The notes under the pieces are model-generated. The model saw only the letters and a program-made list of their open reading frames with translations. It was not told the origin of the DNA and did not search any database. From IMG/VR virus record IMGVR_UViG_3300042475_001686, positions 53,493 to 117,492 of that record: 64,000 nucleotides of DNA; one strand, 5' to 3'. This stretch comes from a virus. Shown piece after piece: positions 1,804-64,000 of the stretch (positions are counted from its first letter, which is position 1; each line of letters starts with the position of its first letter). The translations under genes were made by a program, and so were the position numbers.

Positions 1804-2088
1804 TTATAGCCAATACTTTAGTATAGCAGTTAAAGCAAGAATTGTCCAGAGGATGTTGAACCAAATAATTGTGGGCAATGTCTTGACAGTTGATGACCAG
1901 ATTAATGCTAAACTAGTTATTAAAGCAATTATATAAAGCCACCAAATCTGTGTATTGAATAAAAGCCCTGGAATAATAATTGCTGCCTTGGTCATAAATG
2001 CAAAGAACTCAACAGTATTAGGTTTATTCCAATACTCTTTATGCCCCATAGTTTTTAAAGCGTTTATCCATTCTGTTTTAAAGTTCAT
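1804..2088 (-). CDS. Small multi-pass membrane protein
   Basis: 94 aa, about three hydrophobic helices. Confidence 0.65.
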   Translation of the reverse strand: MNFKTEWINALKTMGHKEYWNKPNTVEFFAFMTKAAIIIPGLLFNTQIWWLYIIALITSLALIWSSTVKTLPTIIWFNILWTILALTAILKYWL

Positions 2089-3629
2089 TTTAGTGAGTCC
2101 AAAAACTTTCTATGATCAGTACACTCTGAAACCTTATAGTTCTGATAATTAACAAAATAGTCATACATCTCTAATCCAGCCTTATAATCTTTTGATAGTT
2201 CTAAGTAATTTTTTGCTATGCTCTTGTTTATTGTATTTTGTTCCGCTCCAATTTGGAACCAACTAGCACTAGCCCATGCTTTCCCTACATCAGACTTTGC
2301 TGGCAATCTATGTTGCCATACATTAATTTTTTCTTTAAGTCTTGCTGGAGCATTTTCATAAGAAAATTTTTCCCAGAACTTAGTATCTTTTCTTAAAGTC
2401 ATATAATGAAAATAAATAAAGTCAGATATGTCATCGTTCATCTCTAACATAGTTTTATTGAATTCATCTCTTCTTGCCTGGGAGTTATCAAAAAGCCATG
2501 CTGGATTATTAAAAATGTTTGTAAGTTCTGTAACACTTACCCAGATAGAAGTTGCTTCCAAAGGCTCAATAAAGTTAGCAGCAAGACCTACTGCGATGCA
2601 GTTATTTATCCATAACTCCTCATAAGATCCAGCACTAAACCTAAATCCACCCTTATCTTTTCTTGGATACTTTGGCTCATATCCTAAAAATTCTTCTATT
2701 TCTTTTACTGCTTCTTCTTCTGATATTAAAGAAGAGTCATATACATACCCGCATCCAAATCTATCCTGTAATGGAATCTTCCATATCCAACCATATTTCA
2801 TTGCTATTGCCTCTGTGTACGGTGGTATATCTTCTGTCATTTCAATAAAAAATGGAACAGCAGAGTCTTCTGGCAAAAAGTCTTTATAACTTTTCCATTT
2901 TGCATTAAAGACTTTTCCTATAATTAATCTATGAAAACCACTACAATCAAAAATAAAATCACAATAAATCTTTTCATTATTTTCTAATGTTAAACTTTCT
3001 ACATTATTATTTTCATCTAAAGATACATTAATAATTGTTCCTTCAATAAGTTTAATTCCACGAATCAGTCCTATTTCTTTTAACTTATTTGCAAGTTTAA
3101 CGGCATTAAAGTGAATTGATATAGCACCTATCTGATTATATTTGTTAATGCCTTCTTTTTCTTGGGAAAATCCAAATGACTGTTTTGTATCTTTAAGAAT
3201 AAAAGGAACCTTATTATTTTCTGAAACTTTTTCCATAAAATTGATTTCTTTAAGACTATCATTTTTTGATAATCCTGCTACCATAAAAGAACTAGTAGAT
3301 AGATATGGTTCAGATGCTGGCTCAAAACCTAAAGACCTATCAGACAAAGCAAATGCATGATAAAAAAATTCATTATCATTATTCCAATTAGTAAATTTAA
3401 TTCCATTTTTGATAGTTGCATCACAGTGTAAAATTAATTCTGATAATGGAATTTCTAAATGATTTAAAAAATCTGTTAAGAATGGTGTAGATCCCTCTCC
3501 AGCACCTAAAATTCCTATATCGTTTGATTCTATAACTGTTACTTCTAAGTCTGGGTATGATCTTTTGGCTTTGAGTGCTGTTAACCAGCCAGCAGTGCCT
3601 CCACCTACTACAACTACCTTTTTAATCAT
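2085..3629 (-). CDS. Tryptophan halogenase family flavoprotein
   Basis: GGGTAGW FAD motif, GAGEGSTP, TIKNGIKF, FDCSGF, GWIWKIPLQDRFGCGYVY, FIEPLEATSI. Confidence 0.9.
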   Translation of the reverse strand: MIKKVVVVGGGTAGWLTALKAKRSYPDLEVTVIESNDIGILGAGEGSTPFLTDFLNHLEIPLSELILHCDATIKNGIKFTNWNNDNEFFYHAFALSDRSLGFEPASEPYLSTSSFMVAGLSKNDSLKEINFMEKVSENNKVPFILKDTKQSFGFSQEKEGINKYNQIGAISIHFNAVKLANKLKEIGLIRGIKLIEGTIINVSLDENNNVESLTLENNEKIYCDFIFDCSGFHRLIIGKVFNAKWKSYKDFLPEDSAVPFFIEMTEDIPPYTEAIAMKYGWIWKIPLQDRFGCGYVYDSSLISEEEAVKEIEEFLGYEPKYPRKDKGGFRFSAGSYEELWINNCIAVGLAANFIEPLEATSIWVSVTELTNIFNNPAWLFDNSQARRDEFNKTMLEMNDDISDFIYFHYMTLRKDTKFWEKFSYENAPARLKEKINVWQHRLPAKSDVGKAWASASWFQIGAEQNTINKSIAKNYLELSKDYKAGLEMYDYFVNYQNYKVSECTDHRKFLDSLK

Positions 3630-3871: not shown

Positions 3872-4167
3872 AGCATTTCCTCTGGTTGCTTTCTAGCAGT
3901 AGTAATAATTGCTTTTGTGCCTTCCCATCTTACACGACCCCTGCAACCGACATTATACTTTGTGTCTCCTTCATATTGTGAAGAAACAGCATAGGCATAC
4001 CCATGCAACTCAAAATCACTGGCCAAAGTTTGATTGCCATTTATAAATATTCTCCACACCATAGGATCTTCTGGACCAGCCTTTGTGTTAAATCTTAAAA
4101 TAATATCATCATAAGGCCTAAGCCATCTATCCTTAACTATGGCCCAAATATAATTTATTTTGTTCAT
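3868..4167 (-). CDS. Hypothetical protein
   Basis: 99 aa ORF with ATGA coupling. Confidence 0.6.
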   Translation of the reverse strand: MNKINYIWAIVKDRWLRPYDDIILRFNTKAGPEDPMVWRIFINGNQTLASDFELHGYAYAVSSQYEGDTKYNVGCRGRVRWEGTKAIITTARKQPEEML

Positions 4168-4925
4168 AACCCCATCTCTTTTCTTTTTTGTGTAGCAGAG
4201 ATAGCCTGAATATCTGCAGGTAATTCAACCTGTTCAATCTTATACCCTACATCACGACCATAAACAATATTAGTAATGTTTGGCAATCTTAGAACCATTG
4301 CCCTATCCATAAATTCATCTTTAGCGATATACTCTTTTACCTGATCAAATTTAAGAGGATCTTTGTCACTTGTATTATATGTATTACGAACACCAAGTAG
4401 TACCTGATTTGTACGCTTACCTGCTTCAACATATAAAGCGTGATGCCCTTCATGCCATGGCTGGTATCTACCAAGCATTAAAGTTGTAGGTGCAGACCAA
4501 TCATGTAATTTAAACTGTTTAATTATCTCAGTTGCTTTTTCATTTGCATTCCATTCATGACTAATAAAGGCCATATCAAAATCTTCAAGCACTTCAAACA
4601 TTTTGTTAGTGTCCTCGTATCTACCTTCTTCGATTGTCTCCATGTATATTAGTATGTCTGGTCTACCGAAGGCAGATCTTGTTTCTTTTGTAGGGCAAAC
4701 AAAATCTACGATAACTGGAGCAACACCCTGTCTGGCAATAAGTCTTGCCATTTCTCCCATACGTCTTGCCTGCTCAACCCTATCCTCATGACTAAACCCA
4801 AGATCAGAGTTTACTGTGGATCTTACCTCATCAGCATTGAGATGAATTGCATTAATACGTTCTTTAAGTGCTTTTGCTAATTCAGTTTTACCAGATCCAG
4901 GCAAACCTATGATTTGTATAATCAT
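4164..4925 (-). CDS. cysC: Adenylyl-sulfate kinase-like P-loop domain fused to HxGH nucleotidyltransferase domain
   Basis: GLPGSGKT, LNADEVR..VNSDLGFSHEDRVEQARR, VDFVCPT; C-terminal LGRYQPWHEGH and ISATQKR. Confidence 0.8.
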   Translation of the reverse strand: MIIQIIGLPGSGKTELAKALKERINAIHLNADEVRSTVNSDLGFSHEDRVEQARRMGEMARLIARQGVAPVIVDFVCPTKETRSAFGRPDILIYMETIEEGRYEDTNKMFEVLEDFDMAFISHEWNANEKATEIIKQFKLHDWSAPTTLMLGRYQPWHEGHHALYVEAGKRTNQVLLGVRNTYNTSDKDPLKFDQVKEYIAKDEFMDRAMVLRLPNITNIVYGRDVGYKIEQVELPADIQAISATQKRKEMGL

Positions 4926-35717: not shown

Positions 35718-36358
35718 TATACCTCTTCCAAAGTAACCGAAATATTCCAAAAGTCAAAATTACTATTTCCACGTTTTACAACGTTATAACTAAAATCAGC
35801 AAAATACATTTGTACTAATTGATTATATTGTGGAAGGTGTGCATAAGCATCATTATCTTTTCCAAAATTAGAATACTTATCATAAGCAAGATAGACCCAA
35901 AATGGACCTTGGTGATTTTCATACCAATCTAAAATTTCTACACCGCCTGCGCCACCATCGCTTGTGTACTCTAAATTATTTTGTCCGCCATGCGGGGACT
36001 TACCAGTTGTAGGATTAAACTCTGGAACTGTAAAGTATGATCTTGAGGGAAGCATATCCCATGAAGTTGATAGAGTTAGTTTATCGGCAATGTGATAAGA
36101 TCTCATTCTTCCGTTAATCATTCTTTCTCTTGTTTCAATTCTTTTAATATTAAAATCTAATGGACCTCTATTATCATCAGACAATATTAAAAATTGATTA
36201 TAAACAGATTCGTCTGTTTCTGAACCTGGATCTTGGCCTACCTCTAATCCATTTGGAATATACAAACCAGAAATTAATGTGCCAGAGTTCTCAGACCATA
36301 GCATTGCCTGTGGTCTACCATATTTTTTTCTACCTGTCATGTATGATGATGTTGACAT
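35717..36358 (-). CDS. Distal tail-like protein
   Basis: Immediately downstream of the tape measure; ends FWNISVTLEEV. Confidence 0.65.
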   Translation of the reverse strand: MSTSSYMTGRKKYGRPQAMLWSENSGTLISGLYIPNGLEVGQDPGSETDESVYNQFLILSDDNRGPLDFNIKRIETRERMINGRMRSYHIADKLTLSTSWDMLPSRSYFTVPEFNPTTGKSPHGGQNNLEYTSDGGAGGVEILDWYENHQGPFWVYLAYDKYSNFGKDNDAYAHLPQYNQLVQMYFADFSYNVVKRGNSNFDFWNISVTLEEV

Positions 36359-39300
36359 TATATTCTGGCTCCTCTAAGTCTCTTTGAATCTACCTGCTTA
36401 ATGTGACTCATTACTGCCCGTGCAATTTCATCAGGGTTTGCATCAGACTTAACATTTACACTAATACTATAATTATACACTGAGTCTCCAACTGAGTCTC
36501 CATTGTTTATTGCCTTCATCTTATCTACACCATAATTTTCAACTGCGTAACGACTCATCACAAACTCACCTGGAGTTAGCATTGCTGGAACTATGTCTGT
36601 TCCAAGTGATAATCCGCCCTTTGCAAAATATTTAGTTGGAATTAATCCTCCAGAACTTCTAAATGCCATTCCGCCATAAGGATTAATCCAAGCCCCTGCT
36701 CTTGCTGCTCTTTCTTCCGCTTCTCTTTCTGCTGCTGCTTTTTCTGCTGCTGCTTTTGCTTCTGCTGCTGCTTTTGCGGCTGCTGCATCTGCTTCAGCCT
36801 TTAATCTTGCTTCTTCTCTTAATCTTGCTTCTGCTGCAGAATCAGTAGTAGATCCTGTATTTCCTGTATTTACAGTACCACCTTTAACCCATCCTCTATT
36901 GTCGTCCCATTCATAATCTCCAACTGGTTTAGGTGGTTTTGTCCATCCGCCTTTACCGTCTGAGATCCAGGCAGCGCCAGGTTGTTTTTGGTTATTAGTA
37001 TTAGTATTACCAGTGTTGGTATTAGTATTGCCAGTGTTAGTGCTGGAACTACTTGAACTACTAGAACTGCTTGAACTGCTAGAGCCACCAAGATCTATAG
37101 TTGTTATATATCTTGTAATGTTTTCTGTAATATTTCTTATTTCATTAATTATGGTTTCTGTTTCTACACTATCTGGAATTGCATTTATAGTTGCTAAAAT
37201 TGATGTCCATGAAGTATCTGATGCTGATGCTGCTGCTGCAGCACCTTCCATTGCTAAAGCATAGGCTTCTGCTAAACCTTCTATTGCCTCTAACTTTATA
37301 ACCATATTTTCATAATCTTCTAAAGTCATGCCAGCACTGTCATCGATGTCTTCTGCTGCATCAACTATACTTTGTAGATATTGTTCCTGTTGGAATAAAT
37401 TATCTTCTTGATCTTGATATTTCTTTACTATTTTTTCTTGTTCGGCAAGATTTGCTTTTGCTGCAGTAACTTGTGCCTGAGCAGCAGTAACTCCTTTTTC
37501 AGCCTCAAGTACAGAAGCCTTAGCAGCAGCAAGTTCGGCCTCTGCTGCTATTTTTATCTTTTCAATTGCTGCAGCACGGCCTTCTTCAATCTTAGCAATA
37601 TTTGCTTTAATAGTTTCGATTTGTTTTTCTAATTCTAGTCTTGCAGGATCATTTTCTAATTTATAAATTGCCTGACTAATCTGGAACTGTCTTTCAGAAA
37701 TTTGTTCTCTGGTCATTCCAGTTTCTGCGCCACGCAAAGAATTAAGTTCATTCTTTCTGGCTTGTTCAAGAGATGACATCTGAGCATTTGCCATTCTTTC
37801 TTGTTCTGATGCTCTCATTTCCTGTGCTGCTCTTGCTGCTGCTGCTATATCACCTTGAGATAATGCATCTGCTAAACCTAATTGCTGCTGTTGTGAGGCA
37901 GCAATATCTTGATTAATTTCGTTTACTTTTTGCAATGCTTCTAATTGTTTATCATATTTTTCATTAATTGATTCAGCCTGATAATCCATTATTGCAAGAT
38001 CATTATTTAATTTATCAGATTCCTTATTTAATTTATCAACTTCATCTTGATATTTAATCTTAATTTGTTTTTCAATTGAATCTATCTTATCTTCTTCTGC
38101 TTTTATTAGGTTGTCTATTCTCTTATTTTCATTATCAATTGCTTTTTCTAAATTATCTTGAGCGGCATCTAAACGATCTTGGGCAGCAGATAAAGCATCT
38201 TCAGCAGAAGATAAAGCATCTTGAGCAGCATTTACATTGCCTTGTAACTGACTTGCTCTTTGTTGTGCTAACCCTAATGTTTGAGCATTGGCTGCTCTTT
38301 GTTTTTGAATTGATGCAAGTGTTTGTCCTGCTCCGATTTGAGGAATTGCAAGACCAGCAGCCTTATATCTTTCTGCCACAGTAGCCATTGCTTGCTGCCC
38401 AATATTTTGTCCACCAACCTGTTTTCCAGTTTTTTTATCTGTTCTTATTGCTGTTGTAATTCCTGGTAATTCTGAAAGAGTCATATTAGAGTATGCAAGT
38501 TTTCTGGCTTTCATAACCTTTTGTGCTGCTTCAAAACCTGTTCTTGCTTGTTCTGCAGGACTTGATGTAGCAAAATCTATTGCAACTTGTAGTTTTGAAT
38601 TTGCTTTTATTGCATTAAGTCCATCTACTATTTCTTTTAATCTATCCCTAGCATCTGCAGCGCCAGACTCATAATCTTGCATTGCAGCAATTGCTGCTGA
38701 AAGTTGTTCTGGATCTTTTATAATATCTAACATTGCACCCTTTGACAATGTTATTCCTTCCTTTGACATCTTTTGGAAGAATTCTAAAACCTTTGGAACC
38801 TGTTTAATGTTTGCAGCCTGTTCTAGCGCCTGAGAGCCTTTTGAAATAAGACCATTAATTCTCTCTCTTATAACTACCTGATTGTTAAGTGCAGCATTTG
38901 TTTTTAAATCTTGCTCTGTAATTTTTCCATTTGCAATTGCAGAAGTAGTATATTCATCTTGTAAAATTCTTTCAATAGCAGTAGCACTATATCCAAGGGC
39001 AACTAACTTTCTTCTTGTTACTTCTTGCTCATTAAGAATTGCTAAAGACTTACCAGCAGCAGTATTAAACTCTCCAATAATAGCAGCATCAAAAGCCTTT
39101 GACATTGTTTTTGCATTATCAGCAAGAACAACATCTCCAACCTTTGCACCCTTTGGTAATAGTTTTTTACCCTTTGGATCAAATGGATCTACGACTCTTC
39201 CTTTATTTTTACCTCTTTTTATTTTGGTAGTCGCAGTCTTCATAAACTTGGCTTGTTCTGCTGGATCTAAATTCATTAACCAGTCAGCGAACTGCCTACT

Positions 39301-42300
39301 AGCGCCAATCTTTTCTAGTTGTTGCTGAATGCCTTGATACTTATTTGCTATTGATTGAAGGTTGCCTGATGCTAAGGCTTTGTTTAATTCTTTTATACCG
39401 CCAGAAGCGTCGATTGCAGCGTTACGAACATTTTTTAATCTTGCAAGAATAAATGCATATGGATCTTCTTTCTTACCGCCACCATCGCTAGGACCTTTAT
39501 ACTTTCCGCCATCTTTAGTATAGATTTTTCCATCTTCGCCAACATAAGTTTTTGCTGCTTCTGATGCAACTGTTGTAGCGTCACTTGCAGCAAGTTTGCT
39601 TGATTCTGCATTATATGTTAACTCTCCAACAGCCTTTGCTGCAGTTCCAGTTAAACCTTTTGTTGCTGCCTTTGCTTTTTCTGCAGCAATTTTTCTTGCC
39701 CATTCTATTTTTGCTTCTGGGCTTGCGAATATAAGATCATATACAGTTTTATATTTTGAAATTGCTTCTTTCTTTGCAACGTCTGGAAGTGCATCCCAAT
39801 CTTTCCACTGAGACATTAATGTTTGCATGCTGCTCTTATTGATTCCAGCAATACCCATTTCTGTTATTTTTGCAATTGCCTCTTTAGTTATTGGAGTTGG
39901 TACTTGCTCTATCTTGTCTAAATCATTTGCAAGTTTCTCTAATCCTTCTATACCTTGAGCCTTTATAAAGGCCTCCATGTTAATTTCTTTACCATCCATA
40001 ACTGAAAGTTGTGCAAGTGCTTTGCCTATCTTATCAAATTGTGCTGGATCTTTACTTATAACATCTGCAGACATTTGCATAGCAAGTTCTTTATTATCAA
40101 AATCAGTAAAGAATTCCATCATCTCTACAGTTTTTTGTGGGCCATGAACTTCCATGCCCATATTTAATGTGTTGTAAAGATCTCCTTCTTTGCCTTCAAA
40201 CATCTTCAAGAATGAATTAAATTGATCTGGGTTAGCAAATCCTTGTCCCATTAATACGTTTGCAACAACTTCGAGTTCTTGAGCCTGCCCCATGCTCTTG
40301 AATCCTCTACTAGCAAAATTAGTACTACCGCTTACACCTGCAAGTTTTTGTTGTACAACCTTTGTCATTCCTGGAAAATCAGTTTTGTATCTTTCTTGTA
40401 CAGATGATTTTAATGCATCAAAGTATGCATCTTCTTCAGCATCTCCACCAAAAATTGCAGCACGTGTATTTTGAATATTTTCTCTAAATGTTTTAATCTC
40501 TGATTGAATTTGATCATTAACCTTTTTATTCATTTGAGAAACATCTGTTATCATTTGAGAATCTAATTCTGCAATCTTGGACTTTAGTTCTAATTGTTTT
40601 TCAAGATTAGTTGTTTGTGCTAATTGTTTTTCTAATAACTGTATTTGCTTTTTATATTGCCATTCTGTAGCGTCTGCCTGTGCCTGTGCTAACTGTACAT
40701 TATTAACACTTAATGCTGCAAGCCTTGCTGCAGAATCTCTTCCGCCACCAGCACTTAATGCTTGTAATTCTGACTTTGTTCTTTCGCCTGCTTGTTGAAT
40801 TATTTTCATTCTAACTGCAAGAGGATCTTTTGTTAAATCTTCCCCATTGGCGCCTATAATGCTATCAAGATTGCCTAAAATATTTACTGTATATTTTCTG
40901 CTTCCTAACTTAACTCCGATTTGTTCTGCAATGCTTGCTGCTTGCTCTGGAGTCAATACTCCATCTGAAATATATGAGGCTAACTGCAAACCAAAACTTT
41001 TAGCAGCATCCCTGGAGCCAAAGTCTTCCATATTTTTAACAAAGCCTTCAGCCATCTTTTTACCAACATCTGATTGTAAAAATGTATCTCCAAACCTTGA
41101 TCCAGCACGTCTTACATCGTTATAATCATTGAATGAACCCTTAGATCTTACTTCCTGCATTGCACGTGATGCGCCAACCTTGTTTGTTATAGCGCCAATT
41201 TCTTCCATCTTTGTTGTAGTAGCAGAAACTGAATTTACATATTCCGCCTGCTTTTTTGCTGCATTTTCAAAATGTTTGTTCAATGCAAACAAACCAGTTC
41301 CGACGGCTATTGCTGCTGTAGTTACCAAACCAATAGGACCCATGCCAGCAAACATAGGAGCCATACCAGCAACCGCAGAAGCACCCATAAGCCCCATGCC
41401 CATTCCAGTATTTCCAGACATCATAGCAGCCATACCAGCCGTTCCTAGGGCCATTGAGGCACCACCAGAGAATCTTCCTACCTTCTCTTGACGCATTGCT
41501 TTAGCATTATTCTTTTCTTGTTTAGCAAGTTCTTTTGCGCTTAATTGTCTTGTCTGTCTGTTCTTTAATTCTTCTCGCTCTATTTGACTTTTTCTTCTAG
41601 CATTAGCGTTATTGACTTCTTCTTGTACCTTTATTTTTCTATATCTTCTTAAAGCGTCGTCAATTTGTTGTTTAGTATATCTATTTTGTTGCTGTAGCAA
41701 TCTTTGCTGATCTTGCATCGCCTTTGTAATACGACCTCTTGCAGCCTTACTTAATGTTGGATCTCCAGCATCTCTTCCTGTCATAACAAAGCCACGTCCA
41801 AGACGTCTTACTTGAGTTCCTGTCGCTACTCTATTTGTTGATGTTTCTGTTGCAACTCTTCTATCAGTTGACTTTCCAGTATCTGCAACTGCTCCTGCTG
41901 GCTTTGGACTAGTATTAGCAGTGGTAAGTTTTGTTATTGCTCCTGTTTTAGTATCAACCATGTATTCTTTATTAGGATTTACTAAAACATTTGTTCCTTT
42001 TGTAGCCCCGCTTGCCAAATTAAATTGTGGTCTCCATTGATTGTAGTATCCTGTACCAAGTCTTCCATCAATTAATTCTGCTACTGCTCTAGACTGTCTT
42101 ACTTCTCCTAGTTTAGGAAATGCCTTTGGCTTAGTTGTTTGGCTCTTTAGAAAATCTTCAGAAATAATATCAAGTTGTGCTGCTGCTCTAACTAACTTAA
42201 CTTCAGATGTGTTGGTCGGATGATTTTGACCAGACATATAGGTTGCTGAGTTTCTAAATTCTTTAATTTGATCTGGAGTTAATCTTAAAGCATTATTGTT

Positions 42301-45300
42301 TTTATCATTCCAATCTAATATGTTGGTTGCTCTTTTACCAGCATTCATATAATTATTTAATAATCTTACGTCAAATAGTGCAGTTCCTTTAAGCCATTTT
42401 GCAGCACCTCTTCCTGACTCTCCTGTTTTTGCTATGTGGGATAGTTCTGGTCTTAATGCTTGAGCAATTTGTTTTTCTGTATATCCTAAAGATCTCATAG
42501 ATTCTTTTACTGATTTTAATGGATCTACTTTACCCTGTACAGCATTTGCTGCTTTAAACTGTTTTTCTTGTTCGTCTAATGTTTTATACAGTAATGAGTT
42601 TGTCGGAATAGCCTGTCTCCATCCACCACTTTGCTTTCCTGTTGGACTCATGTCGAATCTTAACTTAGAAAGATTCATCTTTTTAGGATTAGAAAATGCT
42701 CCACCCTTTTCAATTGCACCTAATCTATAAAGAACTCTCTTCTTAACCTCATCATATGTCTTTCCAGCAGTTAAAGCATTAGCGCCAGAGTCTATAGATT
42801 TCTTATCATAATAAAGTCCATCTTTGTATACTAATTCATTATCAATATACTTTAACATTTCATGCTGTGTTATATTAGATGGCGTAATACCTTTTTTATT
42901 TAATAGTTTACTAACCAACTCATATTGCTTTGGATTAGATGTTTTTAATTTTTCAATTTCTTCTAAAGCATCTTTTCCTAATCTTTTAACAATTGTATCT
43001 ATTTGACTTCTTGACTTAGGATCATTTTTTAATTCATCAAAAGTTCCTAAAGCAAATTTTTCATAACTAGATAGTTTTGCTCTTCCCTTTTGTGGATCAT
43101 TTCCTTCTTCAAAACCTGGGACCTTGTCTTGGAACATTGCAGTAATAAGGCCACGATACTTCTCTGATTTATCTGCAGGAATAATCGCTTCTCCTGGAGA
43201 AACAAATGCTGGAATTATATCTCCAGCACCCTTTGGTCCAGGAACACTTATAATACCATCTTCAAATCCTACTCTACCCTTTGGAAGTTTAGATACTGCA
43301 CCTGCTGCACCACGAACTCCTCCTGCAAATAACGCAGGATTTTGTGCAGCCATATTTCGCATTTGTGTTGTTATTTGTCCATACGCTGCTGCTAATTGCA
43401 TTGCTGCAGTACGCTCAATATTAAATACTTCTGTTAGCCTAGTATGAGTATTATGAAGTGCCTGACTTGCTGCCTGTTGCTCTAACTGCTCTTGTGTTAC
43501 ATAGTTAAAGCCAGCACCTAAAATATTTGTTTGTCCATTTAACTTAGCAACTCCACCTCTTATTGTTGCAAAAAGTTTAATAAGATTTGCTAAACCATTT
43601 GCTAACAAACCAAATGTCATCAAAAGAATTGGACCAAGACCAGCAACTACTCCAACAATTATTGCTATTACTTTTTTTGTTTGATCTCCCAAACCATTAA
43701 ATTTTTCAAATAACTTACCAAAAAATTGTACTATTGGTGTGACTGCTTCAAGAAATGCCTTTCCTAATGGCATGATGTCTTGCTTAAATTGTTCTACTGC
43801 AGCCTGAAACTTTACACCTACAGCATCTTCTACCTTCTTCATTTCTCGTTCTGATAGAACTGCTAACTCTTCAACTGATGCCCCTGCTAAATCAAATGCT
43901 CTTGCTGCCTGAGTTCCATCCTTGGATACATTTTGAAATAAGGTAGACAAACGAGCAAACTGGAATTTTCCAAATAATTGTTCGATGGCACGTGCACGGT
44001 TAAGTGGATCTAAGGTATCAAGTGCTTTTGCAAAACCAACTACTGTAGCCTTAACATCACCTTTATTTGCTTCAACAATTCCTTTGATATTAATTCCCAT
44101 TTCGCCAAGCATCTTGCTTGCTTTTTCTGTTGGGTTAATTAATGAAGCAAGACCAGACTTAAGTGCGTTAGCACCTTCTGATGCATTAATACCGCCTTCC
44201 TTCATGGCAGTCAAGAAGAATGCAAGATCTTCTACGTTACCGCCTAGTTGCTTAACAACTGGTGCTGCTTTTGGAATTGCAATAGTTAAATCTTCAATAG
44301 ATAAAACAGTTTGGTTTTCAACTGCGTTTAGAAAGTTAATTTTTTCTGCTAACTGCTCACTAGATAATCCAAATGCGTTCTGTAATGATATGGTTGTTTC
44401 AAGTGCCTGCTGTTGCTCTACTTGTCCTAGCACTGCTAACTTTGTTGCAGTTTCAACTTGTCTAGTTAAATCTTCACCCTGAAAACCTGCTGCTGCAGCC
44501 GTTGCAGCCATCTCTACTGTATCTTTTACTGCAACTCCATATTTAGTAAATTCTTCTGCAAGTTTTCTTATATTGGCTATTGCGCTTTCTACTTCAGCAT
44601 CATTAGTAAAGGCATCTCCATATACACGTCTAAACTTTAATGTAGCCTGTTCTAACTCTCTAAATGCCTTTGATGCATACCCGCCAAGCATGCCTAGTGG
44701 TATTGTTAAACCAACCATCAACTGGCGTCCAGCCCATTGAGTATTCTTACCAAAGTTTAGAAGTTGTGTAGATCCCTGCTTTAATAATTGATTTAGGAAC
44801 TGTTGTCTTTGTGCTGCATATTGGATACGTGTACCAAGTTCTGTAAATTGTCCATTTGTCATCATCAATGTACGTGGCATAATACGCATAGCATCAATAA
44901 AGCCACCCTGCGCTTTAGCCATCTGTATATACTGTGCTTGTAGTGATTTTACTCTATCTCTACGAGCACGGTTAATAATTTCACGTTCTTGTGCAAAAGC
45001 CTTGCCTAATGTTTTTGTATTGGCTGTTGCAGCAGCCATGCTATATCGATAATATTCTTTAAGGGATAGTTTATTTTTTTCTAAGGCAGTTGTAAATGCC
45101 ATAGTGCTGGACGCAACTTTTGCTTGACTGACAGCAAACTTTCCTGTTGCCCCTACGGCTTGTGCTAATTGAGCGTTTAAACCTTTTTGTGCATTTGCAG
45201 CAGCCAGGTTGCCTTCAGCAAGTGATTGATGAAACTTGCTGAGGCCTGCCTGTAGTCTGCGTAATTGTGCTAAAGCGTCGGCAGTATTAAAATTAATATT

Positions 45301-45324
45301 AATATTAGAGTTTACATCTGCCAA
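36358..45324 (-). CDS. Tape measure protein (2988 aa)
   Basis: TP901-like TMP core (AVENQT..SIEDL..AIPKAAPV..QLGG...GINASEGANALKSGLA), long Ala-rich helical and coiled-coil regions, follows the tail chaperones. Confidence 0.93.
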   Translation of the reverse strand: MADVNSNININFNTADALAQLRRLQAGLSKFHQSLAEGNLAAANAQKGLNAQLAQAVGATGKFAVSQAKVASSTMAFTTALEKNKLSLKEYYRYSMAAATANTKTLGKAFAQEREIINRARRDRVKSLQAQYIQMAKAQGGFIDAMRIMPRTLMMTNGQFTELGTRIQYAAQRQQFLNQLLKQGSTQLLNFGKNTQWAGRQLMVGLTIPLGMLGGYASKAFRELEQATLKFRRVYGDAFTNDAEVESAIANIRKLAEEFTKYGVAVKDTVEMAATAAAAGFQGEDLTRQVETATKLAVLGQVEQQQALETTISLQNAFGLSSEQLAEKINFLNAVENQTVLSIEDLTIAIPKAAPVVKQLGGNVEDLAFFLTAMKEGGINASEGANALKSGLASLINPTEKASKMLGEMGINIKGIVEANKGDVKATVVGFAKALDTLDPLNRARAIEQLFGKFQFARLSTLFQNVSKDGTQAARAFDLAGASVEELAVLSEREMKKVEDAVGVKFQAAVEQFKQDIMPLGKAFLEAVTPIVQFFGKLFEKFNGLGDQTKKVIAIIVGVVAGLGPILLMTFGLLANGLANLIKLFATIRGGVAKLNGQTNILGAGFNYVTQEQLEQQAASQALHNTHTRLTEVFNIERTAAMQLAAAYGQITTQMRNMAAQNPALFAGGVRGAAGAVSKLPKGRVGFEDGIISVPGPKGAGDIIPAFVSPGEAIIPADKSEKYRGLITAMFQDKVPGFEEGNDPQKGRAKLSSYEKFALGTFDELKNDPKSRSQIDTIVKRLGKDALEEIEKLKTSNPKQYELVSKLLNKKGITPSNITQHEMLKYIDNELVYKDGLYYDKKSIDSGANALTAGKTYDEVKKRVLYRLGAIEKGGAFSNPKKMNLSKLRFDMSPTGKQSGGWRQAIPTNSLLYKTLDEQEKQFKAANAVQGKVDPLKSVKESMRSLGYTEKQIAQALRPELSHIAKTGESGRGAAKWLKGTALFDVRLLNNYMNAGKRATNILDWNDKNNNALRLTPDQIKEFRNSATYMSGQNHPTNTSEVKLVRAAAQLDIISEDFLKSQTTKPKAFPKLGEVRQSRAVAELIDGRLGTGYYNQWRPQFNLASGATKGTNVLVNPNKEYMVDTKTGAITKLTTANTSPKPAGAVADTGKSTDRRVATETSTNRVATGTQVRRLGRGFVMTGRDAGDPTLSKAARGRITKAMQDQQRLLQQQNRYTKQQIDDALRRYRKIKVQEEVNNANARRKSQIEREELKNRQTRQLSAKELAKQEKNNAKAMRQEKVGRFSGGASMALGTAGMAAMMSGNTGMGMGLMGASAVAGMAPMFAGMGPIGLVTTAAIAVGTGLFALNKHFENAAKKQAEYVNSVSATTTKMEEIGAITNKVGASRAMQEVRSKGSFNDYNDVRRAGSRFGDTFLQSDVGKKMAEGFVKNMEDFGSRDAAKSFGLQLASYISDGVLTPEQAASIAEQIGVKLGSRKYTVNILGNLDSIIGANGEDLTKDPLAVRMKIIQQAGERTKSELQALSAGGGRDSAARLAALSVNNVQLAQAQADATEWQYKKQIQLLEKQLAQTTNLEKQLELKSKIAELDSQMITDVSQMNKKVNDQIQSEIKTFRENIQNTRAAIFGGDAEEDAYFDALKSSVQERYKTDFPGMTKVVQQKLAGVSGSTNFASRGFKSMGQAQELEVVANVLMGQGFANPDQFNSFLKMFEGKEGDLYNTLNMGMEVHGPQKTVEMMEFFTDFDNKELAMQMSADVISKDPAQFDKIGKALAQLSVMDGKEINMEAFIKAQGIEGLEKLANDLDKIEQVPTPITKEAIAKITEMGIAGINKSSMQTLMSQWKDWDALPDVAKKEAISKYKTVYDLIFASPEAKIEWARKIAAEKAKAATKGLTGTAAKAVGELTYNAESSKLAASDATTVASEAAKTYVGEDGKIYTKDGGKYKGPSDGGGKKEDPYAFILARLKNVRNAAIDASGGIKELNKALASGNLQSIANKYQGIQQQLEKIGASRQFADWLMNLDPAEQAKFMKTATTKIKRGKNKGRVVDPFDPKGKKLLPKGAKVGDVVLADNAKTMSKAFDAAIIGEFNTAAGKSLAILNEQEVTRRKLVALGYSATAIERILQDEYTTSAIANGKITEQDLKTNAALNNQVVIRERINGLISKGSQALEQAANIKQVPKVLEFFQKMSKEGITLSKGAMLDIIKDPEQLSAAIAAMQDYESGAADARDRLKEIVDGLNAIKANSKLQVAIDFATSSPAEQARTGFEAAQKVMKARKLAYSNMTLSELPGITTAIRTDKKTGKQVGGQNIGQQAMATVAERYKAAGLAIPQIGAGQTLASIQKQRAANAQTLGLAQQRASQLQGNVNAAQDALSSAEDALSAAQDRLDAAQDNLEKAIDNENKRIDNLIKAEEDKIDSIEKQIKIKYQDEVDKLNKESDKLNNDLAIMDYQAESINEKYDKQLEALQKVNEINQDIAASQQQQLGLADALSQGDIAAAARAAQEMRASEQERMANAQMSSLEQARKNELNSLRGAETGMTREQISERQFQISQAIYKLENDPARLELEKQIETIKANIAKIEEGRAAAIEKIKIAAEAELAAAKASVLEAEKGVTAAQAQVTAAKANLAEQEKIVKKYQDQEDNLFQQEQYLQSIVDAAEDIDDSAGMTLEDYENMVIKLEAIEGLAEAYALAMEGAAAAASASDTSWTSILATINAIPDSVETETIINEIRNITENITRYITTIDLGGSSSSSSSSSSSSSSTNTGNTNTNTGNTNTNNQKQPGAAWISDGKGGWTKPPKPVGDYEWDDNRGWVKGGTVNTGNTGSTTDSAAEARLREEARLKAEADAAAAKAAAEAKAAAEKAAAEREAEERAARAGAWINPYGGMAFRSSGGLIPTKYFAKGGLSLGTDIVPAMLTPGEFVMSRYAVENYGVDKMKAINNGDSVGDSVYNYSISVNVKSDANPDEIARAVMSHIKQVDSKRLRGARI

Positions 45325-45347: not shown

Positions 45348-45674
45348 TTATTTTACTAGACCAGCAACAACTGATGCATCAGCATTTTGGAATCCAGATG
45401 CTGCATCAATTATCTGATAAACTGTAGGAAGATCTAGCAACTCCTCTAGTTGTTCTCTATCGTCTGCCAATTCTGGCTTGTATTGTTTCATTGCAATTTG
45501 AACACAGTCCATAAGGATATCCATAGACTTATCGTTATCTTCAGCAACTGCAGCCAGTTCAGCAAATTTTAGCATGAATGGTCTTAGAAGAGATAACTTT
45601 AAGGCTCTAACTGGAATCTCTGTATTATCAACTAATGTAACTGTTTTTGTATTATCTTTAGGCTTTTCGGCCAT
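45348..45674 (-). CDS. Tail assembly chaperone, short (G-like) copy
   Basis: Directly upstream of the TMP; homologous to the N-terminal half of 45725-46405; SD AAGGAGG. Confidence 0.75.
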   Translation of the reverse strand: MAEKPKDNTKTVTLVDNTEIPVRALKLSLLRPFMLKFAELAAVAEDNDKSMDILMDCVQIAMKQYKPELADDREQLEELLDLPTVYQIIDAASGFQNADASVVAGLVK

Positions 45675-45699
45675 TGTTCCTCCTTAAGGTATTGAATAA

Positions 45700-45708
45700 A
45701 TTATACCA
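45700..45708 (-). promoter_or_regulatory. Extended -10 promoter TGGTATAAT for short chaperone/TMP
   Basis: Plus strand attatacca. Confidence 0.65.
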
Positions 45709-45724
45709 CAAGAAGACTTTATTT

Positions 45725-46405
45725 TTAGGTAAGATTTTCGTACTCAAGACCCATACCAATGCCAAACCCTGCTTTTTGTGCATTCACTCCTTGTAGTGAT
45801 AGTATGTCTTTTGAGTCTGATGCCTTTCCTTTACTGAATACCCTGGCCTTCATCTCTTCCCAGGCATTATTCTTATTGCTTGCCTTATCTAAGTCTACTC
45901 CTTGCATTGCAGCCAAAAACTTTTTCTGAGAATAGTCTAGATCTCTTTTTATTTTTAGTGTTGCTATTATTTCAGGCATTGACATTGAAGATTCTAATTC
46001 TTCATAGTCTTTCCAAATACCCAGCAAAAAAACCTCTGATTCTAATTCAGCAAGATCTAACTCATCCCAGGTAGACCCACTGTCAGTTGCCTGCTGCTTA
46101 ACTGTTTCTTCTGACTTTTCATTAATCTTAATACCAGCAGCAAAATCTAATATTCTATATATAGTTGGCATATCAATATTATCTTCTAGTTCTTGTTGTG
46201 TTTTTATTTGAGGATAATACTGTCTCATGGCTATTACTGTACATTTTGCCAATGCATCTATAGCCTCGTCATCATTTTTAGCAGACTTAACATTTTCAAA
46301 CTCATCTAAAAATAGTTTTAAGAACTTTATTTTTAATGGTGTTATATATATTTCTGTTCCGTCTATTAATTCAACAACAGCACTTTTATATATTTCTGTA
46401 GGCAT
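45725..46405 (-). CDS. Tail assembly chaperone, long (GT-like) copy
   Basis: G-like N-terminal domain plus C-terminal WDELDL..LESEVFLLG.WKDYEELE.SMSMPE domain; between major tail and TMP. Confidence 0.75.
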   Translation of the reverse strand: MPTEIYKSAVVELIDGTEIYITPLKIKFLKLFLDEFENVKSAKNDDEAIDALAKCTVIAMRQYYPQIKTQQELEDNIDMPTIYRILDFAAGIKINEKSEETVKQQATDSGSTWDELDLAELESEVFLLGIWKDYEELESSMSMPEIIATLKIKRDLDYSQKKFLAAMQGVDLDKASNKNNAWEEMKARVFSKGKASDSKDILSLQGVNAQKAGFGIGMGLEYENLT

Positions 46406-46411
46406 TAAACT

Positions 46412-46420
46412 ATTATATCA
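46412..46420 (-). promoter_or_regulatory. Extended -10 promoter TGATATAAT, 6 nt upstream of ATG (leaderless)
   Basis: Plus strand attatatca; no SD possible in the 6-nt spacer. Confidence 0.7.
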
Positions 46421-46452
46421 AACAGAAAAGCCCAACCTTTTGGGCTGGGCTA
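46421..46452 (-). terminator. Rho-independent terminator after major tail gene
   Basis: Minus strand AGCCCAGCC-CAAAA-GGTTGGGCT followed by TTTCTGTTT. Confidence 0.8.
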
Positions 46453-46470
46453 ATCTTATATTAAGTTGTA

Positions 46471-47094
46471 TTATGCTGGGATTGTACGATCTACGATCTT
46501 ACCGTAAGAACCGTTGTCGTTTGGAAGCAAACGGAATGAGACTTCGAACATTGTTGCCTCATCACGCTTTGCACCAACCGTTACGCTCTCGATTGAGAGT
46601 GCACGATATGCAACGTAAACTCTTTCGATTTGATCAGATGCTGCACAGTCACCAGTTCCTGGGCCAACGGCAACCAAACCACGTTCGACTGGGCATTCGC
46701 CGATGTCGCCTGCGGAAAGATTTAATGTTGGATTACCAGATACTGTTGTAAGATTCTCATCCTTGCTTGCGAGAGCAAAAAGAAGATTCTCTAATGTTGA
46801 TTCTGCGAATGTAGTATTTAGGTTTACCTGCATGCCTTGCTTGAACAACTTAGCAACGTCAAGAACCTGGTCTACTGAAACTTCACCGAAATCTGGTTGG
46901 AACTGTAGTTCCAAACCGTTCATAGTGTAACCTACGTTACGGAACCCTTCCTCATCGGAAAGAGTTGTCTTGTAAGAGACACCTGCAGAATATCCTGGAA
47001 GGACTCCTGCTTCTGGTAGAACACCGTCTTCATATGTGAAGAGTGCTGCTGCACCAACGATGATATTATTGCTAGTACCACGTGTATATGCCAT
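46471..47094 (-). CDS. Major tail (tube) protein
   Basis: MAYTRG...NIIVGAA...VGYT.NGLEL...VDQ.LD..KLFK; high-expression codon bias; SD GAGGTG; followed by terminator. Confidence 0.85.
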   Translation of the reverse strand: MAYTRGTSNNIIVGAAALFTYEDGVLPEAGVLPGYSAGVSYKTTLSDEEGFRNVGYTMNGLELQFQPDFGEVSVDQVLDVAKLFKQGMQVNLNTTFAESTLENLLFALASKDENLTTVSGNPTLNLSAGDIGECPVERGLVAVGPGTGDCAASDQIERVYVAYRALSIESVTVGAKRDEATMFEVSFRLLPNDNGSYGKIVDRTIPA

Positions 47095-47165
47095 GTATTT
47101 CACCTCTTTATTTTTCTAGAAATTAAAAGGCGTGTTTCCTCATCGATAATTATACAGCCTTTTTA

Positions 47166-61481: not shown

Positions 61482-62096
61482 CTATAAAGTTGACCAATAT
61501 AAATATTTTCTATAATCACCGTGCTGTATTACCTTTGGATCAACCCACCAGTCTTCATGATAAGATCTATGAACCAACGAATAGCCAAATGAATCTAGAA
61601 TTTCTCTTTGTGCATTTCTAATAGACTCGTTTTTCCAATACATATTAGCATCATGCTCAAATGTTATTAAAGTAAATCTATAAGTATTTAATGGAACAGC
61701 CAATAGTCCATGTAATGTCCAATGACTATTTCCAACTGGTCTTCCTTCCATATCATATCCAGCATCTATATCTAACTGTAGAAAATCAATCTGCTTTGGA
61801 AAATTATTTTTTTCAAAATAATCAACATAATTGAAAGATAGAGCATCGCCCATACATGGGTTTTTTCTATTTTCATTAAACTCTTCTCTCATAGAATCAA
61901 CTATTTCAAATGACACACCTTGCCAGTCATATTCTTTTTCTAATAAGTAAGTATTGTTTCCATTACTATAATGTGCTGCGCCCAACTCAACATAATATCC
62001 ATTCTTCTTTTTGTTTAAAATTCCAAGAATGAACTGCTCTTGCTCTGTCATTTGATGAGAGTTAAAGTCCTCATTTGTAAATCCAATATTTGTCAT
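61482..62096 (-). CDS. FkbM/Methyltransf_21-like SAM-dependent methyltransferase
   Basis: GYYVELGA....GNNTYLLE...W.G...E, IDFLQLDID, ITFEHD, EDWWV. Confidence 0.8.
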   Translation of the reverse strand: MTNIGFTNEDFNSHQMTEQEQFILGILNKKKNGYYVELGAAHYSNGNNTYLLEKEYDWQGVSFEIVDSMREEFNENRKNPCMGDALSFNYVDYFEKNNFPKQIDFLQLDIDAGYDMEGRPVGNSHWTLHGLLAVPLNTYRFTLITFEHDANMYWKNESIRNAQREILDSFGYSLVHRSYHEDWWVDPKVIQHGDYRKYLYWSTL

Positions 62097-62659
62097 TTAA
62101 ATAAATCTCCTTTTAGTCTTGTTGGTTGCTGCTCTGTTCCATGTATAAAAACAGTTGTGAAGTATCTAATTCTATCATCTAAAACTGGTAATGATCCATG
62201 AACTATATGGCCTCCGTGAATATATAAACTGTTTGTTTTTGGTTTAACCTTAATATTTATTTCTGGGTAGTCTAATTCACCACCGAGGTAGTCATCGTTG
62301 TAATATAGGCAGAACCCATAGCCTATGTAGTATGGCAAATCTGGAATCCATTGATCAGCATGATGCTTTATAAAGTCTCCCTTTTTATATCTTTGTAAAT
62401 GTGTTGAGTGAGGAAAGTAAGAGTATGATTCCATTAGATTTTCTAGAGAATCTCTGATAGAGTCAAATACGCTAGGATGCTTAAAATATAAACTTTTGCC
62501 AAACCAAAAATCTGAGATGTTCTGCTCTATTCTAGCCTCTTCATCAAACCAAAGTTCTTCTGGAGTATTATTAATTATATCTAAAACCTCAGACATCTGA
62601 TCTTCAGTTAAAAAATCATTTACCTCATATAGGTCATCATATAATTTATTAATCTTCAT
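62093..62659 (-). CDS. 2OG-Fe(II) oxygenase (prolyl 4-hydroxylase-like)
   Basis: HAD, YYNDDYLGGEL, HG..PV....RY. Confidence 0.85.
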   Translation of the reverse strand: MKINKLYDDLYEVNDFLTEDQMSEVLDIINNTPEELWFDEEARIEQNISDFWFGKSLYFKHPSVFDSIRDSLENLMESYSYFPHSTHLQRYKKGDFIKHHADQWIPDLPYYIGYGFCLYYNDDYLGGELDYPEINIKVKPKTNSLYIHGGHIVHGSLPVLDDRIRYFTTVFIHGTEQQPTRLKGDLFK

Positions 62660-62664
62660 TTTAT

Positions 62665-63333
62665 TTACATATATTTACTATTAAATATATGACTTACCTC
62701 CAAGTGATTTATATTCATATGTTTTGGAAGTGACCCAACCCATCTTATTGTTTCTGCCATATCTTCTGCTGTTAAAGCATTTTCTTTTTTTTCTAACTGT
62801 GTATCTATTGTACCAGGACAAATCTCTGTAACCTTAATTCCATACTCTGGAAACTCCATTCTCATTGTATCTATTAGGGCCATCTCTCCTCTTTTAGCAT
62901 TACTATAATTACCCCCGCCTCTAAATGGAACCTTTCCACAAAGAGAAGTTATAAATATAATAGTGGCTGATTCTGATTTTTTCATAGACGGAATAAATAA
63001 TTGTGATAAATACATTGGTCCAGAAACATTTATATCATATGCTCTTCTAAAATTATCCATTGTTTCATTAATAATAAAGGTTGGTCCAGAACCTCCGCCA
63101 GCATTATTTACTAATAGGTCTACGGTAATATCCTTATACTTTTCATAAAAGTTTTTAATTTCAGATTCGTTTGTAATGTCTAATCTATATAATTCTAAAT
63201 TAACATTATTTAATTCTGACAGTTTGGCTAGATCTCTTGATACAGCAATAACCTTGTAGTCATTTTCTAATAAAAGTTTTACTGTTGCCAGGCCTACACC
63301 TTTGCTGGCTCCTGTAACTATTGCAGTCTTCAT
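62665..63333 (-). CDS. Short-chain dehydrogenase/reductase (YdfG-like)
   Basis: TGASKGVG, LVNNAG, YSNAK, ICPG. Confidence 0.9.
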   Translation of the reverse strand: MKTAIVTGASKGVGLATVKLLLENDYKVIAVSRDLAKLSELNNVNLELYRLDITNESEIKNFYEKYKDITVDLLVNNAGGGSGPTFIINETMDNFRRAYDINVSGPMYLSQLFIPSMKKSESATIIFITSLCGKVPFRGGGNYSNAKRGEMALIDTMRMEFPEYGIKVTEICPGTIDTQLEKKENALTAEDMAETIRWVGSLPKHMNINHLEVSHIFNSKYM

Positions 63334-64000
63334 GGCTGAATCTCACCTTTTTCAAGTTTATCATAATATTCTTCGAACCCTATAAATTTTGGAATATTAT
63401 TAATAATTTGTTGGTTCTCTCCCCTATACGTAAACTTTAATCTTTTCTCTTCCATCTGTTCCCAAACCTCTTTACCATATTTATCTTGAAACTCCAACCA
63501 CTTTGGATGTGCATCTTGATTATATCTCCAGTAGGTTCTGATCATATACTTATCTCCACTGGTTACTGTTCTTACCCCGTGGTAATGTGGATGACCAGAT
63601 AAAAATACTACAACGTCTCCAGCACTTGGTTTATACGAATAATCTTCTTGAACTACCTGCAAACTTTCATCTTCTATAAATCTAAACTCAACTTCTCCAC
63701 CTTCATAGTTATCGTTTAAGTAAAAGACTGCAGTAACGCCAAACTTTACTCCTGGCTGATAAGTCTTTTCTCTTTGAAAGTCTGTATGATGATGCATAAT
63801 ATATCCAAAATCATGATTTGGATTTGGTATATACTTTGCAATATTCCAACCCTGATAAATCCAATTACTTAATGATATATTATTTTCTTCAAGGTAAAGT
63901 TTTGTAGTTTCATAAAATAAAGAGTCTATTCTTTTTCTAACCAAATTTTCTTCATTATTTACAGGATAAAGTTCGTTAAATTTGTCATCCCATTCCTGTT
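63330..64000 (-). CDS. 2OG-Fe(II) oxygenase (prolyl 4-hydroxylase-like), 5' end outside window
   Basis: HTD, YLNDNYEGGE, HGV..V.SG.KY; frame is open to the window edge. Confidence 0.85.
   Translation of the reverse strand, partial: QEWDDKFNELYPVNNEENLVRKRIDSLFYETTKLYLEENNISLSNWIYQGWNIAKYIPNPNHDFGYIMHHHTDFQREKTYQPGVKFGVTAVFYLNDNYEGGEVEFRFIEDESLQVVQEDYSYKPSAGDVVVFLSGHPHYHGVRTVTSGDKYMIRTYWRYNQDAHPKWLEFQDKYGKEVWEQMEEKRLKFTYRGENQQIINNIPKFIGFEEYYDKLEKGEIQP

Follow-up and report, generated by a model that had tools for sequence, protein, structure and literature searches.

A fused G-T gene and a separate G paralogue as the probable replacement of a tail assembly chaperone frameshift in a clade of freshwater siphophages

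Two homologous genes between the major tail gene and the tape measure gene

The stretch of DNA described here (hereafter the window) comprises 64,000 nucleotides (nt) and forms the right-hand 64 kb of the 117,492-base virus record IMGVR_UViG_3300042475_001686, a single metagenome-derived genome rated 100% complete. Within its tail region, whose genes lie on the minus strand throughout, the major tail gene is followed by a long gene, a short gene and finally the tape measure gene (Table 1), and the two genes in between are the subject of this work, as they most likely encode the tail assembly chaperones of a siphophage as separate genes, which jointly replace the -1 frameshift still used by a sister clade. 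A first-pass annotation, made from the letters of the window, had already described two homologous genes at this place, with the long form coming first and continuing in frame into an extra domain. Both statements hold, the quoted peptides being present and BLASTP aligning residues 12-96 of the short protein with residues 11-93 of the long protein (33/85 identities, 39%, E 1e-19); past the shared region the long protein runs on in frame for about 130 further residues (97-226). The shared part is referred to as G and the extension as T, following the names in use for phage lambda.

Comparison with protein families reproduced this bipartite layout. Residues 1-102 of the long protein match positions 1-102 of 114 of phrog_10504 (E 4.1e-20) and residues 130-221 match positions 1-83 of 86 of phrog_10474 (E 2.7e-15), while residues 10-104 of the short protein match phrog_10504 (E 2.5e-13) and no other PHROG; both families are listed with unknown function. 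No further copy of G or T was found elsewhere in the genome.

Table 1. Coordinates of the genes and signals of the chaperone locus in the window (aa, amino acids; HMM, hidden Markov model)
Feature	Position	Strand	Remarks
Major tail protein gene	46471..47103	minus	210 aa, GTG start; phrog_2175 at 1.7e-32
Terminator-like hairpin + TTTTCTGTTT	46429..46451	minus	scan: 9 pairs, 6 G-C; 3' of major tail gene
Extended -10 box TGATATAAT, putative leaderless promoter of long gene	46412..46420	minus	6 nt before ATG; no Shine-Dalgarno
Long gene	45725..46405	minus	226 aa; ATG at 46405
Long gene, G (N-terminal chaperone) domain, residues 1-95	46121..46405	minus	phrog_10504, G HMM, PDB fold ranking
Long gene, linker + T domain (residues 96-226) + stop codon	45725..46120	minus	phrog_10474, T HMM; same frame as G
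TGGTATAAT box, putative promoter of short gene	45700..45708	minus	spacer between long and short gene
Shine-Dalgarno AAGGAGG of short gene	45679..45685	minus	four bases before ATG at 45674
Short gene, G-only paralogue	45348..45674	minus	108 aa; phrog_10504; alignment with frameshift-type G
Tape measure protein gene	36358..45324	minus	2988 aa, TTG start; Pfam PhageMin_Tail PF10145 at 8e-29

Distribution of the fused and the split arrangement

A search of a large metagenome protein set with the long protein returned 6515 homologues at E<=0.001, the best 120 of which are 71-100% identical to it and 192-246 aa in length. Eighty IMG/VR loci were fetched with the long protein (68-100% identity), and in 79 of them the short paralogue is located directly downstream, followed by the tape measure gene; in the lone exception the contig ends inside the long gene. 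The same arrangement of a fused gene plus a second G was identified in six more distant loci, which share 46-48% identity with the query (P0123). In a library of representatives clustered at 50% identity few full-length fusions were found (e.g., 235, 227 and 240 aa at 54, 48 and 50% identity), the other matches being G-only (about 100-116 aa) or T-only (about 85-143 aa) proteins. A search seeded with the T-domain alignment of distant matches then yielded 80 loci of a second freshwater clade; a related-locus search seeded with the T-only protein P0137 gave no confirmed locus.

HMMs of G and T were built and mapped onto the stop-to-stop open reading frames (ORFs) of 168 loci, 166 of them from IMG/VR. 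G followed by T in the -1 frame was found in 80 of the 168 loci, namely in two phages of the Streptomyces BE cluster and in 78 loci of the second freshwater clade, and G and T within one ORF, followed by a second G, were found in 85, which answers the proposal that relatives be surveyed for the duplication. The second G lies in the -1, +1 or 0 frame relative to the first one in 35, 25 and 25 of these 85 fused loci, respectively, as is expected of an independent gene. Three loci are exceptional, one being cut by the contig end, one showing no detectable G and one showing a G fragment in the +1 frame. The latter two belong to the split clade: in locus L139 the G HMM detects no G upstream of T, and in locus L165 the fragment comprises 22 residues only; both may be assembly errors or real variants.

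Among cultured phages, tblastn with the long protein matched 130 records (127 from Streptomyces and three from Rhodococcus phages), all at less than 60% identity, and in each of the best 40 of these the match falls into two pieces, over a coding sequence (CDS) annotated as 'tail assembly chaperone' and the next CDS; the short protein gave no tblastn match among cultured phages. The long gene had been proposed to be comparable to the G and T of large Streptomyces siphophages, and the two tblastn pieces indeed fall on the G ORF and the -1-frame T ORF of such phages. Judged by sequence, the long gene is thus the G and the T of the Streptomyces BE-cluster phages and of the freshwater sister clade, joined in frame.

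The frameshift site is kept in the sister clade and gone from the fused clade

In the split loci, the -1 frame opens just 43-88 nt ahead of the G stop codon, and within this overlap 78 of the 80 loci possess an in-frame X XXY YYZ heptamer (C CCA AAC in 73, C CCA AAT in three and A AAT TTA in two), the loci lacking it being both BE phages (0/2). Within the fused clade, no in-frame X XXY YYZ heptamer is common to more than 25% of the 65 unique long or the 59 unique short genes. The claim that the two products are made without recoding is hence supported, as neither gene holds a conserved slip site and G and T share one frame in the window as well as in its relatives. Alignment with the frameshift-type G revealed that the short proteins end 9-11 residues beyond the position equivalent to the slip site, as canonical G does, and that the C-terminal tails of the short protein and of canonical G (...DDPNLLAAAVLAGQN vs ...NADASVVAGLVK) are of equal length; the long proteins run past this position into a linker and then the T domain. 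The T-domain motif WDELxL...FLLGIWK is encountered as STWDELDLAELESEVFLLGIWKDYEE in frame in the long protein of the window and as SWDELNLTQLEAELFLLGIWKNFEE in the -1 frame of the Streptomyces phage EGole.

Two candidate shifts were considered and rejected. The slippery-looking run GTT TTT TTG inside the T domain of the window was dismissed as a hidden slip site, since relatives encode the corresponding EVFLLG by GTA TTT TTG, TTC CTT and other codons. A shift by which translation of the short gene would run on into the tape measure gene was dismissed because stop codons occur in all three frames of the 23-nt gap between them.

For the two BE phages the overlap was inspected separately. In EGole (L001, 3288-3345) the T ORF lies in the -1 frame and is open from 3288, 58 nt before the G stop at 3345, and in Stanimal (L002, 3300-3363) it likewise lies in the -1 frame, the overlap with G amounting to 58-64 nt in the two phages. 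No X XXY YYZ heptamer was found in either overlap, so that BE-cluster phages appear to shift without a canonical heptamer. Their GenBank entries list two separate CDSs, the second often as 'hypothetical protein'.

Selection on, and origin of, the two copies

The fused G, the T domain and the short G are all under purifying selection, with median ratios of nonsynonymous to synonymous substitution rates (dN/dS, Nei-Gojobori, 85 loci) of 0.18, 0.12 and 0.18, respectively. For the phylogeny of the two copies, which the first-pass annotation had called for, a maximum-likelihood tree of 62 G domains and 102 columns was computed, with the root assumed on the BE phages. Fused G (support 98/95) and short G (95/93) are each monophyletic, and the two clades are sisters (100/97) with respect to the freshwater frameshift-type G (100/98) and the BE phages. 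The approximately unbiased (AU) test rejects a grouping of short G with frameshift-type G (p 0.023). In a quick tree the fused T domains fall on one side of a branch (Shimodaira-Hasegawa-like approximate likelihood-ratio test 94), which does not contradict a single fusion event.

As the two G copies are sister clades, one duplication is pointed to. The ancestor of the freshwater clade would thus have undergone one duplication of G together with a change between G and T that fused their frames. Such a duplication may have been a tandem one, whereby the downstream copy would have kept the old signals and lost T, and the upstream copy would have lost its leader and had its frames fused. The unit of promoter, leader and Shine-Dalgarno sequence of the short gene (tatggtataat ... 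ccttaaggagga) resembles that of the sister-clade G (tatgctataat ... tccttaaggagga), a likeness which fits a tandem duplication.

Start signals, terminator and spacer

The layout upstream of the long gene is the same in every relative, consisting of a hairpin, a T-run, the box TGnTAnnnT, an A/T-rich spacer and the start codon. The box is present in 84/84 loci, with a spacer of 6 nt in 76, 7 nt in one and 8 nt in seven of them, the start codon being ATG in 77 and GTG in seven; in none of the 84 loci do the last 20 nt before the long gene contain a Shine-Dalgarno-like 4-mer. With 6 nt between the end of the -10 box and the start codon in the window, the message would start on the A of the ATG or on a neighbouring base and so be leaderless, a reading which makes use of the usual distance from -10 box to transcription start. 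The long gene is therefore probably leaderless. The short gene, by comparison, carries a strong Shine-Dalgarno sequence (AGGAGG type) within 18 nt of its start in 84/84 loci. These findings bear out what had been noted for the window, namely a leaderless-type start with a box 6 nt before the ATG and a strong AAGGAGG ahead of the short gene. The further claim of a separate promoter for the short gene was upheld in part, as the box is there in the window but a strict TGnTA[TC]A[AC]T box precedes the short gene in only 61/85 loci. For this reason it is initiation strength, and not a separate promoter, that makes up the conserved contrast between the long and the short gene; we infer that this contrast lies in translation initiation, to which the extra promoter would add in most members including the window.

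The terminator described after the major tail gene was also found by a terminator scan, as a hairpin with T-run. In the relatives a hairpin is located at the same place with differing sequence, its outer pairs changing on both sides; consensus folding recovered four pairs only, because the loop lengths differ. A promoter scan flagged neither of the two TGnTATAAT boxes, since it demands a -35 hexamer, and the promoter calls hence rest on conservation. Between the stop codon of the major tail gene, which it directly follows, and the terminator lies the motif ACAACTTAATA (46459-46469, minus strand), which at least 18 of the 20 aligned relatives (90% or more) share, the adjacent hairpin varying freely there.

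RNA libraries contributed 24 runs, which were kept as contigs only (shares 0.07-0.19), so that starts, strands and levels are not readable from them. Four libraries, from three or four studies, contain contigs over the major tail gene (46476-47121) at 90-99% likeness, and in one library a 268-nt contig matches the short gene exactly (45400-45667); for the long gene no RNA contig was found in the four runs compared, which is not evidence of low expression. The matches indicate that relatives of the phage are present in freshwater and river RNA data sets.

Assignment to the tail assembly chaperones

The assignment of both genes to the tail assembly chaperones is based on their position, on their homology to annotated chaperones of cultured relatives, on the G/T architecture and on the predicted fold. 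AlphaFold models of the long and the short protein reached predicted local distance difference test (pLDDT) values of 81, with residues 9-170 confident, and 77, respectively, and in both a beta-hairpin is followed by helices. When ranked against 48,161 PDB chains, the first two places were the same for both models: 3klu_A with Z 5.6 (root-mean-square deviation (rmsd) 3.9, 84 residues aligned) for the long and Z 5.7 (rmsd 4.3, 86 aligned) for the short model, and 2ob9_B with Z 4.3 (rmsd 5.8, 86 aligned) and Z 4.9 (rmsd 6.1, 88 aligned). Entry 2ob9 is the HK97 tail assembly chaperone and 3klu is YqbN, which we take to be a member of the chaperone family. Among the predicted viral structures of BFVD, three rows were obtained at E<=0.001, including one entitled 'Tail assembly chaperone', and weaker rows include the N15 'Tail assembly protein GT' (E 8.4e-3) and several other chaperone-named proteins. 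A profile of G found nothing meaningful among PDB sequences, the best match being a designed protein at E 0.034.

Modelled as a complex, the T domain and the major tail protein scored 0.50, compared with 0.00 for the best of three controls, with a contact agreement between runs of at least 32% and a partner pLDDT of at least 44, which gives weak support to an interaction. The mark applied to such scores is reached by 116/157 solved complexes and by 2/215 mismatched pairs; scores of 0.60 or under at the mark comprise only 18 of the 157 solved complexes and both mismatches that pass.

PF12322, entitled 'T4 bacteriophage base plate protein' and presumably the family that holds the T4 chaperones, was matched below threshold by ten of 61 G-type proteins (best E 4.9e-4, 20.3 bits vs 24.5), the matches covering about positions 4-65 of the 219 of the profile. 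The seven matches that were tabulated all belong to frameshift-type G proteins of the sister clade (L089, L098, L106, L112, L133, L134 and L146), the window protein not being among them. These matches may reflect a distant link to the T4-like chaperones.

Proposed mode of action and rival explanations

Building on the observed homology, the architecture and its conservation, the purifying selection and the loss of the slip site, the following model is suggested. The long gene would correspond to lambda gpGT (TAC-NC), with G and T permanently fused in frame, and the short gene, having diverged as a copy of G without T, to gpG (TAC-N). By analogy with lambda, G would coat the tape measure protein and the T domain would recruit the major tail protein. 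The excess of G over GT would now be set by initiation, whereby a leaderless start devoid of a Shine-Dalgarno sequence would serve the rare GT and a strong Shine-Dalgarno sequence the abundant G, with an extra promoter of its own for the short gene in most relatives. That a clade of abundant freshwater phages swapped a nearly universal recoding signal for two genes, with the ratio fixed by start-site design alone, is held to be only somewhat more probable than not.

Several observations weigh against the model. As to the chaperone assignment, no Pfam chaperone family was found for the two window proteins at E<=1, and among 61 relatives one match to Phage_TAC_19 (0.0088, 16.6 bits vs a cut-off of 27) and one to Phage_TAC_7 (0.048) stayed below threshold. 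The structural Z-scores of 4.3-5.7 are low and within a range that the search tool rates as common, Foldseek found nothing in the PDB at E<=0.001, and confidence is poor over the C-terminal 55 residues of the long model (pLDDT about 55). As to the ratio, the promoter box of the short gene is missing in 24/85 loci (among them L013-L030, L048, L049, L084 and L088), where the spacer measures 27-29 nt and holds a Shine-Dalgarno sequence only, so that both genes would be co-transcribed there; moreover, leaderless starts are not necessarily weak in actinobacteria. As to the origin, the tree of G has few columns, long branches that meet and an assumed root, and the AU test does not reject a grouping of fused G with frameshift-type G (p 0.072).

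An unlikely, though the most serious, rival explanation accepts both genes as chaperone paralogues but assumes that they divide their labour otherwise than by a G/GT ratio, for instance with the G domains binding different stretches of the tape measure protein, in which case both classical roles would fall to the long protein, with the short one as an additional specialist. This would agree with the low identity of the two G copies, which sit on long branches of 0.93 and 0.56, with the purifying selection on both of them and with the unusual length of the tape measure protein (2988 aa vs 2105 aa in EGole). Against it speaks that the short protein ends exactly at the canonical end of G and that its gene keeps an arrangement of promoter, leader and Shine-Dalgarno sequence like that of the sister-clade G, which together form the pattern of a like-for-like replacement of G.

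The idea that the long gene itself yields two products by an unrecognised route, be it a non-canonical shift, early termination, internal initiation or proteolysis, with the short gene as an accessory, is considered very improbable. The slippery look of the T-run in the T domain would favour it, as would the BE phages, whose shift seems to do without a canonical heptamer, so that sites of other kinds may be present in the family; however, relatives do not share the nucleotides of the run, an in-frame heptamer is in no case common to more than 25% of the sequences, and with a separately encoded G that is under purifying selection in 85 loci no other source of G is needed. An in-frame fusion due to a sequencing or assembly error, or a short gene that is merely a decaying remnant, might be suspected of a single metagenome-derived record, yet no support was found for either. 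Assembly error is excluded because the arrangement recurs in 79/80 related and six distant loci, i.e., in 85 independent contigs down to 46-48% identity; the 6515 homologues, the close ones among them (best 120) measuring 192-246 aa, speak against it as well, and the dN/dS of 0.18 of the short gene speaks against a remnant. The conservation of the architecture across loci hence refutes this reading. The replacement of the frameshift by two separate chaperone genes thus remains the favoured explanation.

Comparison with known systems

The gpG/gpGT pair of lambda and the conserved -1 frameshift of long-tailed phages were reportedly described by Xu, Hendrix and Duda in 2004 (Mol Cell 16:11). In pairs of the lambda type G is in large excess over GT, and neither protein is part of the virion. 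As in lambda, the genes of the window follow the major tail gene and precede the tape measure gene, and their short and long products share the N-terminal domain, the long one possessing the T extension; the sister clade and the BE-cluster phages moreover have the T ORF in the -1 frame, as lambda does. In contrast to lambda, the window has G and T in one open frame, with a diverged second gene for G downstream. Lambda proteins showed no sequence match to the window proteins, the sole link being the weak, fold-level row of N15 GT (E 8.4e-3).

The closest cultured relatives are the BE-cluster Streptomyces phages (Stanwilliamsviridae; EGole, Stanimal), to which the long protein is 36% and the major tail protein 46% identical. 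They share the gene order as well as the terminator and the TGATATAAT promoter between the major tail gene and G, but differ in that G and T lie in different frames, that a second G is lacking and that their G is preceded by a leader containing a Shine-Dalgarno sequence.

For some T4-like phages, separate genes for a short and a long chaperone that dispense with a frameshift are reported (PMC10885494), and the T4-like tail assembly chaperone case (Vladimirov, Gautam and Davidson 2022, Virology 566:9) is also taken up in PMC12846349. Going by these descriptions, the T4-like pair resembles the window in that separate short and long genes share their N-terminal part. The T4-like phages differ in being contractile-tailed phages of other hosts, whereas the present clade is one of siphophages; its own features are a sister clade that keeps the slip site and a long gene that comes first and has a leaderless-type start. 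Towards the T4 proteins, only the sub-threshold PF12322 matches of sister-clade G proteins were found, which do not establish homology. For the Microbacterium Cluster EA phages no evident frameshift is reported, and what is described there is a pair of ORFs rather than a duplication of G in which one copy has been joined to T (PMC7302621). Given the T4-like precedent, the principle of two genes in place of a frameshift is not new; the siphophage arrangement of a duplicated G and a fused G-T is a well-documented new form of this known principle. A literature search, outside which most subscription journals lay, returned no account of the freshwater clade, of a duplicated G plus fused G-T in siphophages or of a leaderless chaperone gene.

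Implications

The G/GT frameshift counts among the most conserved viral recoding events, and its usual explanation is a fixed ratio of the two chaperone forms. This is the very feature that separates the two sister clades, frameshift versus hard-wired genes, each with dozens of sequenced members. The frameshift would hence be replaceable in a siphophage lineage, the replacement being stable over deep divergence (down to about 46% identity), and the property that was rebuilt is suggested to be unequal initiation. Were this the case, tail assembly would have no mechanistic need of the frameshift, e.g., to obtain both forms from one message in cis, and the fused clade and its frameshifting sister would constitute a matched natural pair for testing why the frameshift persists elsewhere. 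In practice, the fused locus will be mislabelled by gene callers and frameshift predictors, and phrog_10504 and phrog_10474 can now be named.

Genome setting

The window has a G+C content of about 36%. Upstream of the major tail gene the portal, protease and capsid genes are located. The major tail protein itself shows a weak match to phrog_885 'major tail protein', and the 46% identity given above refers to the annotated major tail protein of EGole. The tape measure gene begins 23 nt past the short gene; according to CDS coordinates, its product is about 880 residues longer than that of EGole, and a run of 14 serines as well as repeats of the TGNTNTN type are located near its C-terminal end. 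Other genes of the window encode a DNA polymerase III alpha subunit, a DnaB-like helicase, a primase, RecA and a class II ribonucleotide reductase. In addition, a protein of 514 aa (2085-3629, minus strand) matches Pfam Trp_halogenase over nearly its full length (E 6e-105); near its gene lie that of an APS-kinase-like P-loop protein (4164-4925), two 2OG-Fe(II) oxygenase-like genes and a short-chain dehydrogenase gene (62093-63944).

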